From IMG/VR virus record IMGVR_UViG_3300006092_000342, positions 32,222-96,221 of that record: a DNA stretch of 64,000 bases; one strand, written 5' to 3'. Both the position numbers and the translations under genes were made by a program. The notes beneath the pieces were generated by a model. That model worked only from the letters and a program-made list of their open reading frames with translations. It had not been told where the DNA came from and searched no databases. Position 1 is the first letter of the stretch; the number at the start of each line of letters is the position of its first letter. Source of the DNA: a virus. Taxonomy: Duplodnaviria; Caudoviricetes. Shown here piece by piece: positions 53,337 through 63,970 of this stretch.

Positions 53337-53675
53337 ATGAAAGAATTAAGATGGTTTACAAAAGATGATGGCACTAGGGTATTGATGTTTTTAGAACAAA
53401 CAGGTCCCTACTCTTTTAGATATGTGGATATTCCAAGAAAATATGAAAGTCTTTTGGCTAAGCATAATGAAACCGCTATGTTTAAAGTTAAAAAAGAGGA
53501 CATTGAAACCTGTAGTTTAGAAATAGGAGACGAATGCTGCATTACAATGAAACATTTACCTACAGGAGTTACTGTAAAAAAAGATAATATCAAAGTCACA
53601 TTTGAAGAACGAGAAGAATTATTAAACCACCTTTTAAATAAAATCAAACAACATCATGAAAAAATTAATTCTTAG
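53337..53675 (+). CDS. Hypothetical protein
   Basis: 112 aa; HLPTGVTV resembles the RF-1/ArfB strand but there is no GGQ. Confidence 0.6.
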   Translation: MKELRWFTKDDGTRVLMFLEQTGPYSFRYVDIPRKYESLLAKHNETAMFKVKKEDIETCSLEIGDECCITMKHLPTGVTVKKDNIKVTFEEREELLNHLLNKIKQHHEKINS

Positions 53676-53877
53676 TCTTTTATTGTTTACTAGTTGTGGT
53701 TATGAAGCCGCTATGCCTGACGCGAAAATTTATAAAATTAGTTTTCAAAAAGACAATCTTTGCCTTTATAAACTAGATAGATCAAGCAGTCTTATGTTTT
53801 TTAGCGTAAACAAGGGATGGTTTATTGATACCTGCGGAAAATTCAACATAGGCGATATTGTTAAACACACTAAATAA
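53656..53877 (+). CDS. Small lipoprotein
   Basis: MKKLILSLLLFTS-C lipobox. Confidence 0.65.
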   Translation: MKKLILSLLLFTSCGYEAAMPDAKIYKISFQKDNLCLYKLDRSSSLMFFSVNKGWFIDTCGKFNIGDIVKHTK

Positions 53878-54368
53878 TGATTATCTCTAAAGACAGCATA
53901 ATAACTGAGTCTGTTTTACAACAAGGTCTTGCAATTTTTTTAGACTACCGAAAAACTATAATAATTCCTAATGTAAGCTATGGCTGGCAATTAAAACATG
54001 AAGCAGATTTAATTTATATCAGGAATCGGAGTGCTACAGAAATAGAAATAAAAACTACTAGAACAGACTTTCTAAATGATTTTAATAAAAAACATGGGCA
54101 TGAAAACAAAAAGATAAATCGTTTGGTTTATTGCATTCCTAAAGACTTACAACAACTGGCTGAAAAAACTTTAAATAGTAAAATCGGAATTGTTTGTTTT
54201 GAACGGATACTATATACGTATAGTAATAAACACGATAAGCTTGTTTTTACCAAAATCAGACAAGGCTCGTTTAAAACTCCGAAACACATATTAACTGATC
54301 AGGAAATCATTGCTATCATGCGCCTTGGATGCATGAGACAATGGAACAAACACAATGTAACCTTTTAA
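53877..54368 (+). CDS. MmcB-like PD-(D/E)XK nuclease
   Basis: HEADL...EIEIKTTRTDFLND motif. Confidence 0.75.
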   Translation: MIISKDSIITESVLQQGLAIFLDYRKTIIIPNVSYGWQLKHEADLIYIRNRSATEIEIKTTRTDFLNDFNKKHGHENKKINRLVYCIPKDLQQLAEKTLNSKIGIVCFERILYTYSNKHDKLVFTKIRQGSFKTPKHILTDQEIIAIMRLGCMRQWNKHNVTF

Positions 54369-54378
54369 AATCTTTTAT

Positions 54379-54585
54379 ATGAAATTATCAATTTTTAAAT
54401 TAGCAATCCTTTTACATCCAACAGATGAAGAAGCAAAAAATGGAATTAAAACTACTTTTATTCAAGAACCTACTTATGTTTTAGCAACTAGTCAACAAGT
54501 AGCGGAACGCCAAGCCCTGGTAAGCCTAGATCCTAAGTATAAGGATAAACTTGAACAAATAGTAGTTGCTTGTGGTCCTTTTTAA
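54379..54585 (+). CDS. Small hypothetical protein, possibly extended by a -1 frameshift to 54839
   Basis: Ends CCT TTT TAA; the overlapping -1 frame is open to 54839. Confidence 0.65.
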   Translation: MKLSIFKLAILLHPTDEEAKNGIKTTFIQEPTYVLATSQQVAERQALVSLDPKYKDKLEQIVVACGPF

Positions 54586-54935
54586 AAGCTGTTAATACCG
54601 GGCAAGATATTAACAGCTTAAGTAACGAAGATAAATTTGCCAAAAAACTAAGTAACGATAAATACAATGATTCAACAGTTAATCTTTTGTCTTCTAGTGG
54701 AACTAATTTATCATCGAATATTGCAGAAAGTCTTAAGGTAAATGGTAACAGCCTTACTTTTTCAACTGCTGACGGTGTACAAGCTCTTTCAGCAAATCCG
54801 GCAACATATACCTGTGCTGCAAATATTATGCAAAAATAGAATTATAACTACTTGGACCACTAACTACCTACTGACTGTGGTTTAAATAAAACTCAGGGTT
54901 TTGCCTAGTAGTTTTTTTAATTTAAACACCTAACA

Positions 54936-55403
54936 ATGTCTAAAGAAAAATATTATACCCCTAGTCTAAATGAATTTCATATCGGGTTTAGATATGAAGC
55001 CTCTAGAGAAGCTAAGTTAATACAAGAAGGTAAAGGCAATACTTGGTATTCTAATTCAATAGAATGTTTACAGGATTTTGAAATTTTGGGACTTTGTGAA
55101 AATTTAAGAGTATCTTATTTAGATCGGACTGATATTGAAGACTTGGGTTGGAGTGGCTATAAAAGAAGTACATGTGATTGGTATTATATAAAAGGATTTT
55201 ATACGCTTAAAAACCAATTAAGATATAGAGCTTTTAGACTTCTTCATTGTCGTGATAGAAATACTGTGAAAATAACTGGCTTTGAATATGAACATCAACT
55301 TAATGAAAAAACTGAATTTGATGATCTTTTTAATGGAGAATGTAAGAATTATAATGAATTAAAAAATATAATGAGTGCACTTGGAATTATCCAAAAAACT
55401 TAA
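54936..55403 (+). CDS. Hypothetical phage protein
   Basis: 155 aa ORF with AT-rich leader. Confidence 0.7.
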   Translation: MSKEKYYTPSLNEFHIGFRYEASREAKLIQEGKGNTWYSNSIECLQDFEILGLCENLRVSYLDRTDIEDLGWSGYKRSTCDWYYIKGFYTLKNQLRYRAFRLLHCRDRNTVKITGFEYEHQLNEKTEFDDLFNGECKNYNELKNIMSALGIIQKT

Positions 55404-55446
55404 AATAAATATTTGAAGGATCCTGTTGGAAATTTATAAAATACCA

Positions 55447-55454
55447 TATATTTG
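55447..55454 (+). promoter_or_regulatory. Bacteroidota -7 element TATATTTG for the tRNA unit
   Basis: TAnnTTTG 3 nt before the tRNA-Met 5' end; GTTG at 55425-55428 is a possible -33. Confidence 0.75.
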
Positions 55455-55457
55455 TCA

Positions 55458-55530
55458 CGCGAGGTGGAGCAGTTGGCAGCTCGTTGGACTCATAATCCAA
55501 AGGTCGCAAGTTCGAATCTTGTCCTCGCAA
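55458..55530 (+). tRNA. tRNA-Met(CAU), initiator-like
   Basis: Cloverleaf CGCGAGG / GAGC-GCTC / TTGGA-CTCATAA-TCCAA / GCAAG-TTCGAAT-CTTGT / CCTCGCA-A; C1:A72 mismatch, A11-U24; no encoded CCA. Confidence 0.95.
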
Positions 55531-55547
55531 CAAAACCCTTAATAGCC

Positions 55548-55610
55548 ATGAAAGCTTATTTTAATCTGCAAAATTCGGAACGTTTTTCTACCAAAAGTGG
55601 ACCGGAATAG
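55548..55610 (+). CDS. 20-aa leader peptide MKAYFNLQNSERFSTKSGPE of a candidate attenuator
   Basis: ATG 55548 to TAG 55610, between the two tRNAs; its 3' end is complementary to the downstream terminator. Confidence 0.5.
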   Translation: MKAYFNLQNSERFSTKSGPE

Positions 55611-55640
55611 CTATGCATTAATTTAAGCAAGCAGAATTAA

Positions 55641-55674
55641 AAGAGCCCTGGTCCATGCCGGGGCTTTTGCGTTT
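55641..55674 (+). terminator. Terminator (probably conditional) immediately before tRNA-Glu
   Basis: AGCCCTGG-TCCATG-CCGGGGCT followed by TTTGCGTTT. Confidence 0.7.
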
Positions 55675-55676
55675 AT

Positions 55677-55751
55677 GGCGCTGTTGACAAATTGGAATAA
55701 GTCACCACACTTTCACTGTGGACAATATGGGTTCGAACCCCATCGGCGCTA
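55677..55751 (+). tRNA. tRNA-Glu(UUC)
   Basis: GGCGCTG / GAC-GTC / CCACA-CTTTCAC-TGTGG / ATGGG-TTCGAAC-CCCAT / CGGCGCT-A. Confidence 0.93.
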
Positions 55752-55860
55752 CTAAATATCCAAGTATAATTGGAAAACATCGATTTCCGATCACAATAGA
55801 TTCAAGCCTTATTACCCGGAATATTGCTATCTTGTATTTGTGAAACCCAGTAAATATATC

Positions 55861-56103
55861 ATGACTATAACTCAAACCAATGCTTTATTACTTAAAGCCG
55901 AACTCAAGAATCCCCAAATTTGGGATCCCTATCTGACAATACAATCTGAGAATGATGGGAGCCTGACTATGCTACAAGGCGCTAATTCCGAAATAAATGA
56001 GGATGCTGATATTCAGTGGCCAGCCGGGGAAGAACTCCCTCAAAATGGAATGGAATCCGGAATTATTTATAATAATTTTGAATTTCAGACTTATTTGAAT
56101 TAA
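55861..56103 (+). CDS. Small acidic hypothetical protein
   Basis: ATG at 55861 within the tracked ORF. Confidence 0.55.
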   Translation: MTITQTNALLLKAELKNPQIWDPYLTIQSENDGSLTMLQGANSEINEDADIQWPAGEELPQNGMESGIIYNNFEFQTYLN

Positions 56104-56218
56104 TTTTGAAGTCTCTGGTTAATTTTACAAACCTTTTTGCTTCAGATCAGAGTGTGCCCTGGATCTCCCGATCACAGGGCTCTTAAGAAATTTCATAAGC
56201 AGTTTTTAATAATCGAAC

Positions 56219-56248
56219 TAAGTAAGGGGAGAAATCCCCTTACTTTTT
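56219..56248. terminator. Terminator between convergent genes
   Basis: AAGTAAGGGGA-GAAA-TCCCCTTACTT followed by a T-run. Confidence 0.8.
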
Positions 56249-56562
56249 TAAGAAGTAGGTTTTTCTTTCTCAGGTTTCGAACCTACAGGTACTTCCAGGC
56301 CTAAATCTATACTTGCTTTTTTATACACGTTCAGGGCCCCTAGGACCAAAACAAAACCTATAAGCATTACAACACCTACACCAATCCACATCAGTATGTA
56401 CCGGTAATGTAATCCCGCGGATCCTATTAAAATTCCTACAAAAAACACTAGAACTCTTCGTATAATATGGACATGTTTTTTCAAAAATAGAGATCCTACA
56501 AAGGAAAGTACTATCCCAAGAATACTCAGGTTTAATAAAAATGGAACTACATTTGCTAACAT
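56248..56562 (-). CDS. Three-TM membrane protein (holin-like topology)
   Basis: Three hydrophobic segments and a charged C-tail; lone minus-strand gene in this block. Confidence 0.6.
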   Translation of the reverse strand: MLANVVPFLLNLSILGIVLSFVGSLFLKKHVHIIRRVLVFFVGILIGSAGLHYRYILMWIGVGVVMLIGFVLVLGALNVYKKASIDLGLEVPVGSKPEKEKPTS

Positions 56563-59410: not shown

Positions 59411-59718
59411 TCTTTTGGGTATGTTTGAAATAAAATAAAAGGAAGGTATTGTCTTGGTTTTAGTTTTGGTTTTGCCGACATAGAGTTGACGAGAGGATGA
59501 AAACAGAAATTGGAAGGAAGGATGTGTTTGTTTGAACAGAGAGCATGCATCTAAAAATATAACTGATATAAAGCTTGGGCCGGGGCGTGCCTGGGATATA
59601 AACGCTGACAGGCACACTGGGTTCAGTATCGATTGGTGTAGGAGAAGCGAAGCGAAGGAATGATCACCGGAGCCCGGCCCTACATCAATTGTTTTACTCA
59701 CCGTTTAAATCGTTTATC

Positions 59719-60977: not shown

Positions 60978-61107
60978 TTTTTATAGAGCTCCTCGCCAAT
61001 GCAAACGTGCATTGACGGGGAGAGTAAACGCTGACCGATGCACTTCCTAATAGTATTGATTATTAATTATTAACTGCGCCGGGCAGTCCCCGGTATTTTA
61101 TTAGCTT

Positions 61108-61729: not shown

Positions 61730-61760
61730 AAAGACAGTCCTTTACCGGACTGTCTTTTTT
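61730..61760 (+). terminator. Intrinsic terminator
   Basis: AAAGACAGTCC-TTTACC-GGACTGTC followed by T6. Confidence 0.9.
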
Positions 61761-62138
61761 AATAAATACCATTCCAACCCTCCAACGCTGACCGATGCAC
61801 TTTATCCAACGCTGACCGACACACTTTCTCCCTCGCTCAATCTTTACCAGAAGGAACCTAATTGAATACAGTTAATATCTATCAATATTTTTAAACCGGC
61901 GGAAAAGATTATCTTTATACCATTAAATAACCTACTACTCTATTACAGTATTAAATAGGTATAACCAATGTCTCAAACCTTTAAATACTTCCACACATTC
62001 CCTCATCCTCCTCCTTATTTATCTCATAATTGCATAGGTCACCGAATTTAATTTGTACCTCTCGCCGATCATACAACCTATTGAACCTAATTTTTTATCT
62101 ATTTTCCAAATTCTATTACGCTAAAACGCAAATTCACA

Positions 62139-62679: not shown

Positions 62680-63243
62680 ATGAAAGAAATTAAAAATCAG
62701 TATGGAAAATGGCTATTGAATAGAGTTAAAGGCTATTTTGAAGATGCGTGGAATTGGTATAGATTAAGGAAAATAGGCAATCGATTAAGATCGCGAGGGC
62801 TTAAGGTGATCTTACAACAAAGTAAGATTAATCCGGAAGTAAAACGATTATGGGTAAATGCATTGTTATCGGGAGAATATAAAAAGACTCAACTTAAGTT
62901 AAGGGAAGAAGATTCTTATTGTGTAGTAGGGCTATTGTGTGAATTACATAGAAAAGAGACTGGGGTAGGAGATTGGAGAAATAAGAATAGTTATATAGGC
63001 TGGAGCTTGATAGCGCCTAGAGAAGTAAAGGAATGGGCAGGGGTAGTTAGTGATTATTTTCTTAATACTGTAGCAGAGTTTGAGTATGAAGTAAGAAATG
63101 AGAGAGGAGAGTTAATAAGAATGGAGAAAAGAGAGCTAGGTATAATGGGATTAAATGATTTTGGGAAAAGAGAGAAAGAAGAAGAGTTAGTAGGAGAGTT
63201 TAGCTTTGAAGAGTTAGGGTATGTAATAGAAAGAGCATTCTAG
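62680..63243 (+). CDS. Hypothetical phage protein, paralog A
   Basis: WVNALLSGEYKK...YCVVGLLCELHRKETG shared with the next gene. Confidence 0.8.
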   Translation: MKEIKNQYGKWLLNRVKGYFEDAWNWYRLRKIGNRLRSRGLKVILQQSKINPEVKRLWVNALLSGEYKKTQLKLREEDSYCVVGLLCELHRKETGVGDWRNKNSYIGWSLIAPREVKEWAGVVSDYFLNTVAEFEYEVRNERGELIRMEKRELGIMGLNDFGKREKEEELVGEFSFEELGYVIERAF

Positions 63244-63891
63244 GTTGTCATCCGCCGGATGGACTTTTTTGGTCCGGACAGTTCTGGATATCCTCCGGCG
63301 GATCTTTTTTAAACAATTAAATCAACAAAAATGAACAAAATTTCGGCAATTCAGACTTTAAAAGATACCTGGCTGAGGATACAGCTCATGTGGTATGGAA
63401 TATGGGCAAATCTAATCCTGCTAAAAACAGGGTATAAAATTATAGAGCAGGATCATAAAATGGATAAGCGTATAAAACTAAAATGGGCAGAAGCCTTACT
63501 TAGTGGAGATTATAAAAAGGGACAAGGATCTCTAAAAAAAAGAGACTGCTATTGTGTAATGGGAGTCTTGTGTGACCTACACCGAAAAGAGACAGGCACA
63601 GGGCGTTGGATAAATCTAGTAGGTTTTGATGAAAGTTATGAAAGTGAGGATACTATAAATCACTTTATGGTCACTGGTGGAGTATGTAATTGGGCAAAAG
63701 TTGATAATAGTTATTTTAATAGGAAAGTAGTAAGACATAAAAAATTAAAAGGGGTTGGCGAAATGATAGCAATCTCAGGTCTAAATCTAATACACTTAAA
63801 CGATCTCGCAAAATTTCAGGGAAGGTTTAAATTAGGATTTAAACAGTTAGCTTATATAATGTACAAATCGTACTAGGTTGTCATCCGCCGG
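63240..63891 (+). repeat. 19-bp direct repeat CTAGGTTGTCATCCGCCGG starting long hairpins
   Basis: Exact copies at 63240-63258 and 63873-63891, each containing a paralog stop codon. Confidence 0.9.
63331..63876 (+). CDS. Hypothetical phage protein, paralog B
   Basis: WAEALLSGDYKK...YCVMGVLCDLHRKETG. Confidence 0.8.
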   Translation: MNKISAIQTLKDTWLRIQLMWYGIWANLILLKTGYKIIEQDHKMDKRIKLKWAEALLSGDYKKGQGSLKKRDCYCVMGVLCDLHRKETGTGRWINLVGFDESYESEDTINHFMVTGGVCNWAKVDNSYFNRKVVRHKKLKGVGEMIAISGLNLIHLNDLAKFQGRFKLGFKQLAYIMYKSY

Positions 63892-63970
63892 GAGGGGTTT
63901 TTCGGACCAAACTGGTTCTGAATCTACCTCTCCCAGGTCGGTATTTTATAATTAAAATAGAAACATAGAA

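Follow-up and report, generated by a model that had tools for sequence, protein, structure and literature searches.

A candidate leader-peptide attenuator between two tRNA genes of a crAss-like phage

The control of tRNA genes is generally assumed to act at the promoter, through growth rate or the stringent response, and phage tRNAs tend to be regarded either as a constitutive supplement or as spares that counter anticodon nucleases. How, then, is a phage tRNA gene expressed if it lies immediately behind a terminator-like hairpin and shows no promoter motif of its own? This question is raised by a locus in the stretch of viral DNA analyzed here (the window), which covers 64 kb at the right end of an IMG/VR virus record of 96 kb. 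The record contains two tRNA genes only, tRNA-Met and tRNA-Glu, and the spacer between them holds a short ORF followed by the hairpin. An initial annotation of the locus had proposed that the spacer is a translation-sensing attenuator that gates the tRNA-Glu gene. We find that the geometry of such an attenuator is present and unusual, and we regard leader-peptide (ribosome-mediated) transcription attenuation before a tRNA gene as the best single reading of the unit, with a probability that falls a little short of even.

The stretch is present in public sequencing runs of activated sludge and wastewater. The large terminase of the phage is nearest to that of Cellulophaga phage phi14:2 (29% identity) and to those of Flavobacterium and Bacteroides crAss-like phages, and the real gene starts of the phage lack Shine-Dalgarno sequences and lie in A/T-rich, G-poor contexts. 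On these two grounds the host almost certainly belongs to the Bacteroidota. Long ORFs are intact under translation table 11, and stop-codon recoding is not suggested.

Elements of the tRNA unit

The elements discussed below are as follows; all lie on the plus strand, and L013 and X5 denote two related sequences that are described in a later section.

55447–55454, plus strand: Bacteroidota sigma-A type -7 box TATATTTG (consensus TAnnTTTG), ending 4 nt before the tRNA-Met 5' end; probable promoter
55458–55531, plus strand: tRNA-Met(CAT), initiator-like (ARAGORN and Rfam, 64.6 bits), with no encoded CCA
55548–55610, plus strand: putative leader ORF MKAYFNLQNSERFSTKSGPE, with 20 sense codons from ATG at 55548 to TAG at 55608–55610
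55574–55606, plus strand: "1:2" hairpin (UUCGG/CCGGA plus an inner 7-bp helix), present in the minimum free energy (MFE) and centroid structures; -7.1 kcal/mol
55578–55580, plus strand: GAA codon 11, the only Glu codon at which ribosome stalling would keep the antiterminator strand accessible
55597–55612, plus strand: region 2, the candidate antiterminator 5' strand GUGGACCGG..GCU, formed by the last four codons and the stop; unchanged in both L013 and X5
55641–55676, plus strand: intrinsic-terminator-like hairpin and tail (stem-loop 55641–55668, 12 bp, loop CCAU, tail UUUU-GCG-UUUAU)
55644–55656, plus strand: region 3, the candidate antiterminator 3' strand, formed by the G+C core of the terminator 5' arm and the loop
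55677–55752, plus strand: tRNA-Glu(UUC), crAss-type (ARAGORN and Rfam, 54 bits), the gene proposed to be gated
55861–56103, plus strand: orphan 80-aa ORF that accompanies the tRNA module; a hairpin with a U-run follows at 56220–56245

The -7 box is the probable promoter of the whole unit. The Flavobacterium consensus TAnnTTTG occupies positions -12 to -5 (PMC9723704), and with this spacing transcription would start at, or within a base of, the tRNA-Met 5' end, giving a nearly leaderless pre-tRNA. A motif scan identified this box as the sole plus-strand TAnnTTTG between 54632 and 56073, with none in 55455–55676 and hence none before tRNA-Glu; genome-wide, the motif is not enriched (46 found versus 41 expected). 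At the level of motifs, the tRNA-Glu gene thus shares one transcription unit with the leader and has no promoter between the two. It should therefore have to be transcribed through the hairpin, which by its position would be a gate of some kind.

Both tRNAs have distinctive features. The tRNA-Met carries the C1 x A72 mismatch and the G29-G30 of the anticodon stem that mark it as initiator-like. The tRNA-Glu, unusual in its long D-loop, AATTGGAATAA, is homologous to the tRNA-Glu of the human-gut Crassvirales phage cr126_1 (L008, 1492–1566), with 86% identity over 58 nt; its anticodon loop, CUUUCAC, matches the usual tRNA-Glu loop.

Folding and coordinates both bear out the annotated terminator, 8 nt before tRNA-Glu(UUC). 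The stem-loop at 55641–55668 (-19.2 kcal/mol) is present in the MFE and centroid structures and is followed by GCGUUUAU. It has the G+C-rich stem, short loop and 3' U-tract of an intrinsic terminator, the tract consisting of four U and then GCG, and polymerase would be expected to terminate there. Because an A-tract precedes the stem and a U-tract follows it, the hairpin is as terminator-like on the minus strand as on the plus strand. Other strong U-tailed hairpins of the phage have a longer unbroken T run, for example six T at 56220–56245 and at 61730–61757.

These properties would also suit a constitutive, leaky intrinsic terminator or insulator, possibly bidirectional, with the ORF and the complementarity described below being coincidental. 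Such an element would end most tRNA-Met transcripts, stabilize their 3' ends, fix a lower dose of tRNA-Glu and block antisense transcription from the minus-strand gene at 56248–56562. Its flanking A- and U-tracts would let it act on either strand, and the short U-tract fits partial termination. Moreover, unrelated phages use nearly the same hairpin with a U-run, AGCCCyGG...CCGGGGCTTTTT, as an ordinary gene-end terminator (L006, 12523–12547; L007, 5889–5914). Those terminators follow protein-coding genes, whereas the hairpin studied here lies 8 nt upstream of a promoterless gene. We consider this explanation possible but rather unlikely, for reasons that follow from the geometry of the leader.

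Searches of the spacer for other kinds of element gave little. Rfam, run over 55380–55900 with E values up to 10, matched the two tRNAs only, with no leader, riboswitch or T-box match. A degenerate third tRNA in the spacer was rejected, there being no tRNA-like score at E up to 10, and so was an origin from a repeat or mobile element, as the spacer contains no repeats. Taken whole, the spacer does not fold significantly better than its shuffles (z = -1.8).

The 20-codon ORF with two GAA codons that had been annotated after tRNA-Met is present at the coordinates given above. Its start context falls at the 94th percentile of all ATGs and at the 39th percentile of real starts, and it lacks a Shine-Dalgarno sequence, like the real genes of the phage; the ORF may be translated. 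Two GAA codons are no enrichment, and this agrees with a leaky terminator preceded by an incidental ORF: GAA makes up 5.4% of phage codons, such that about 1.0 is expected in 19 codons and two or more occur with a probability of about 0.27 (binomial). One of the two, codon 11, is well placed, but the second, codon 20 (55605–55607), lies inside region 2, and a stall there would therefore favor termination. The leader also has no run of cognate codons, whereas classical attenuators do, although a single GAA codon could suffice as a sensor. In cr126_1, the spacer upstream of tRNA-Glu likewise contains a small ORF between crAss-type tRNAs, but it has 12 codons, no Glu codon and a hairpin without a U-run, and thus lacks such geometry; this, too, is in line with a leaky terminator and a coincidental ORF.

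Competing helices and a proposed switch

The pairing on which the initial annotation had based its attenuator, between the last codons of the leader and the terminator, withstood examination. Nucleotides 55597–55605 pair with 55648–55656 in a helix of 9 bp, including two G-U pairs, with an energy of -11.6 kcal/mol; because this helix overlaps the 5' arm and loop of the terminator, the two are mutually exclusive. The helix extends through pairing of GCU (55610–55612) with AGC (55644–55646) to 12 bp and a duplex energy of -16.4 kcal/mol. In this form it is the best upstream duplex with the 5' arm and loop, and it covers the whole G+C core of the arm. Its 5' strand is a segment that a ribosome at the end of the ORF would mask. 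At -11.6 or -16.4 kcal/mol the antiterminator is weaker than the terminator (-19.2 kcal/mol), and the same is true of the trp attenuator. In the naked leader, part of region 2 is occupied instead by the 1:2 hairpin, which corresponds to the 1:2 element of the trp scheme.

An energy of -16.4 kcal/mol was reached by 3.3% of random 109-nt genome windows and by 1.7% of dinucleotide shuffles of the spacer. The joint geometry is much rarer. We defined it as an ATG-initiated ORF of at least 10 codons, a duplex strand lying under a ribosome parked at the stop codon, and a Glu codon far enough upstream; it occurs in 0.05% of random genome windows at a threshold of -16.4 kcal/mol and in 0.5% at -12 kcal/mol, although these definitions were set after the case had been seen and the true figure is therefore less extreme. 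The phage has six U-tailed hairpins of about -14 kcal/mol or stronger, and the ratio of competitor to hairpin energy is 0.90 for the one studied here versus 0.29–0.67 for the other five. A constitutive leaky terminator would thus have to accommodate a complementarity to the last ORF codons that is unusual in itself (p 0.017–0.033), a joint geometry that is much more so, and the absence of such a competitor from the other strong hairpins of the phage.

We then folded the leader with ribosome-covered segments masked. With GAA codon 11 in the A site (55563–55592 masked) and the RNA ending at 55657, the MFE structure contains the antiterminator; with the ribosome at the stop codon (55593–55622 masked), the MFE structure lacks it. 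This is the behavior that an attenuator of this type would need to show.

Together, these elements suggest a leader-peptide attenuator that would operate as follows. Host RNA polymerase would start at the -7 box and transcribe tRNA-Met, with almost no 5' leader, and then the 145-nt spacer, while a ribosome would load at the AUG at 55548. When Glu-tRNA(UUC) is sufficient, the ribosome would reach the UAG at 55608 and cover approximately 55593–55620, hiding region 2 (55597–55612); the hairpin at 55641–55668 would then form, and many polymerases would stop 8 nt before tRNA-Glu. When GAA codon 11 is slow, the footprint of the ribosome would end near 55590 and region 2 would be free to pair with 55644–55656 as this segment emerges. 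The antiterminator would take the G+C core of the terminator 5' arm, and polymerase would continue into tRNA-Glu and the 80-aa ORF. If the leader is not translated, 55574–55578 would pair with 55602–55606 and the terminator would again be favored. The net effect would be a negative feedback by which the supply of tRNA-Glu is matched to the demand of the phage. Such a demand-driven loop for tRNA-Glu(UUC) would make sense, because 81% of the Glu codons of the phage are GAA.

The trp-like geometry of the original proposal is therefore real and unusual, and it is more complete than had been described, as it includes a candidate promoter, a 12-bp antiterminator and a 1:2 hairpin; its sensor, in turn, is reduced to one usable GAA codon. 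Two further suggestions fared less well. We found no evidence that synthesis of the tRNA is restricted to conditions in which host translation is compromised, and demand-driven Glu-tRNA feedback fits the geometry equally well. The supposed link to anticodon nucleases gained no support beyond general background (e.g., PMC10264068).

Relatives and mosaicism of the locus

Three lineages could be compared with the window (L002, L013 and X5). L002 is 94% identical over 53639–55389, after which similarity ends abruptly, and it has no tRNAs there; the tRNA unit thus appears to lie within a variable island. tRNAs are absent from the corresponding place in L002–L005, the relatives of the upstream 155-aa gene.

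The orphan 80-aa ORF led us to L013. Resemblance to the window starts exactly at the -7 box, which is kept at the same distance from tRNA-Met, and the sequence upstream of the box is unrelated. An unrelated gene lies there, and its product shares 27% identity with the C-terminal portion of the 2141-aa tail protein of the window, indicating that the unit sits in a distant crAss-like phage. Behind the same box lies a second initiator-like tRNA-Met allele (approximately 70% identical). Identity then rises from approximately 75% to approximately 100% near 55585, and because the sequences are identical from there onward, L013 is uninformative on regions 2–4.

The diverged half of L013 does bear on the leader. 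Its ORF, MKSYFNHQQPERLSTKSGPE, keeps the ATG, the frame and the 20-codon length despite nine substitutions in codons 2–13, and the sole indel in the leader, of 5 nt, falls just upstream of the ATG. In a simulation, an ORF of 15 or more codons survived in approximately 10% of trials (14 substitutions were used versus 13 observed). The survival of the ORF is not what a coincidental ORF before a leaky terminator would lead one to expect. GAA codon 11 is also kept, although the recombination breakpoint is near. Of the 1:2 hairpin, the outer helix is kept in L013, with C-G in place of one U-G pair and without the terminal pair, whereas a mismatch weakens the inner helix. Within the diverged half, a block of 12 nt, CTTATTTTAATC, shows no change.

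The conservation of the ORF, its good start context and the invariant block could also mean that the spacer makes a product of its own, either a 20-aa peptide, encoded by a small gene that has its own terminator, or a stable RNA that tRNA processing releases from the spacer, with tRNA-Glu expressed by incidental read-through. With a hairpin on its 5' side, then an A/U-rich linker and finally a terminator hairpin, the spacer has a layout like that of a small RNA. In E. coli, the 3'ETS of leuZ and the internal spacer of metZ-metW-metV are tRNA-spacer small RNAs that act as sponges for small RNAs and are not known to contain a conserved ORF. The phage spacer resembles them in being a piece between or after tRNAs that processing would release and that ends in a terminator hairpin, but it differs from them in containing a conserved ORF. 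Between the window and L013, 5 of 12 codons change the amino acid, and a pN/pS of 0.61 on nine differences suggests that the peptide sequence is not clearly constrained. Rfam gave no small-RNA match at the permissive threshold used above, and a product of the spacer would leave unexplained both the complementarity between the ORF end and the terminator arm and the missing tRNA-Glu promoter. We therefore consider a product of this kind improbable.

The X5 variant is a 913-nt contig from a wastewater run. It matches 55593–55679 with nine substitutions and two insertions and then continues into different sequence. Its leader end (55593–55622) is identical to that of the window, and the A/T-rich linker accounts for four of the changes. 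The stem has three (G43A, C48T and T49C), each of which preserves pairing; the loop has gained one base and the tail one U. The X5 hairpin is equally stable, and its antiterminator duplex has an energy of -14.2 kcal/mol versus -16.4 kcal/mol in the window. C48T and T49C are no independent test of the antiterminator, because their partner is a G in both helices. Across the three lineages, the terminator thus shows three pair-preserving stem changes, and the antiterminator is kept without independent covariation. Structure-preserving changes of this kind fit any functional hairpin, a leaky terminator included.

In X5 the switch to another tRNA falls exactly at the tRNA 5' end, and the sequence beyond the hairpin begins as a tRNA would. 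The 22-nt D-arm of this tRNA occurs exactly in 34 Chryseobacterium genomes, within tRNA-Glu(UUC) in 33 of the 34, whereas BLAST of the 30 available letters of the tRNA against phages was ambiguous between Gln and Glu. Judging by the identity of the D-arm, not by an anticodon, the X5 leader end and hairpin very probably gate a second, unrelated tRNA-Glu gene. The match also points, tentatively, to Chryseobacterium or one of its close relatives as the host or as the donor of the X5 tRNA.

The -7 box, tRNA-Met, leader, hairpin, tRNA-Glu and 80-aa ORF (55390–56291) behave together as a mobile cassette, which is absent from the 94%-identical L002 and in part approximately 100% identical in L013, with breakpoints at 55389/55447 and near 55585. 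Mosaicism on this scale could in principle also have created the arrangement by chance: the hairpin would be a relic of cassette shuffling, originally the terminator of tRNA-Met, behind which tRNA-Glu genes later recombined in, and would have no regulatory role. The end of L002 homology at 55389, the start of L013 homology at the box and its shift in identity near 55585, the switch of X5 exactly at the tRNA 5' end and an identity of only 27% between the structural proteins of the L013 phage and the window would all agree with shuffling. Yet the two tRNAs that follow the hairpin both seem to be tRNA-Glu, the changes in the hairpin stem preserve its pairing, and a tRNA without its own promoter implies that the junction would be under selection to allow expression. 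A relic without function thus seems very improbable.

Slightly more tentatively than the attenuator itself, we propose that the phage tRNA-Glu is autoregulated through the speed at which GAA codons are translated, and that a promoter-tRNA(iMet)-leader-terminator-tRNA(Glu) cassette moves between distant crAss-like phages with different tRNA-Glu genes plugged in.

Further relatives were sought in several ways. Exact or degenerate DNA patterns of the hairpin, the tRNA 3' halves and the leader end identified no relatives in viral, metagenome or genome contigs, the degenerate hairpin pattern giving two matches only, both to unrelated gene-end terminators. Searches for related loci with the 155-aa, 308-aa and TerL proteins found nothing, and GenBank phages matched through the tRNAs themselves only. 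The 308-aa and 80-aa ORFs are orphans, and neither Pfam nor PHROGs matched the neighboring small proteins.

Comparison with known attenuators

Leader-peptide attenuators of amino-acid operons (Gollnick and Babitzke 2002, cited by PMC9723704) are the closest known systems. Like the E. coli trpL, hisL, pheL, thrL and leuL attenuators, the phage unit combines a (probable) promoter, a short ORF and alternative 1:2, 2:3 and 3:4 helices, in which the ORF ends inside region 2 and an intrinsic-terminator-like hairpin immediately precedes the gene to be regulated. It differs from the trpL class in that it would regulate a tRNA rather than an enzyme operon, such that the product itself would close the loop, and in having a single cognate codon, not a run. 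In addition, the phage leader follows another tRNA instead of occupying a 5' end, it belongs to a Bacteroidota phage that lacks Shine-Dalgarno sequences, and it shows no sequence similarity to Rfam leader families.

The pyrBI and pyrE leaders couple ribosome and polymerase without special regulatory codons, and a ribosome that follows closely prevents the terminator. As in these systems, read-through in the phage unit would depend on the position of the ribosome relative to the terminator and not on a codon run; unlike in these systems, a ribosome that reaches the stop codon would favor the terminator.

To our knowledge, gene regulation in Bacteroidota phages is almost unstudied. Leader-peptide attenuation is reported to be likely in a flavobacterium, where it was inferred upstream of amino-acid operons (PMC9723704), which makes the mechanism plausible in Bacteroidota. 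We searched the literature and found no description of a tRNA gene, from a phage or otherwise, under leader-peptide control. If the attenuator reading is correct, a translation-sensing switch before a tRNA gene would constitute a direct supply-and-demand loop for decoding capacity. Phages would then meter their tRNAs, and leader-peptide attenuation would reach a new class of target, in Bacteroidota phages, in a minimal form consisting of one tRNA and one codon. The unit measures approximately 300 nt, making a simple reporter test feasible.

Several minor features of the window were recorded in addition. Contigs identical to 56241–56427, part of a minus-strand, membrane-like ORF of 104 aa for which one relative was found, occur in two activated-sludge runs labeled metatranscriptomic; contigs from these runs otherwise cover just tRNA-Met look-alikes, and they are probably DNA. 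A diverged 633-bp tandem duplication (62840–63275 and 63473–63908, 70–75% identity) yields two paralogous genes, at 62680–63243 and 63331–63876, each of which has behind it a GTCATCCGCCGG... hairpin with a T-run. Finally, the motif AACGCTGACCGAYRCACTT is present in four copies in the plus-strand gene region (59599–59618, 61024–61047, 61781–61804 and 61805–61828), where it may represent a phage-specific promoter or a protein-binding site.
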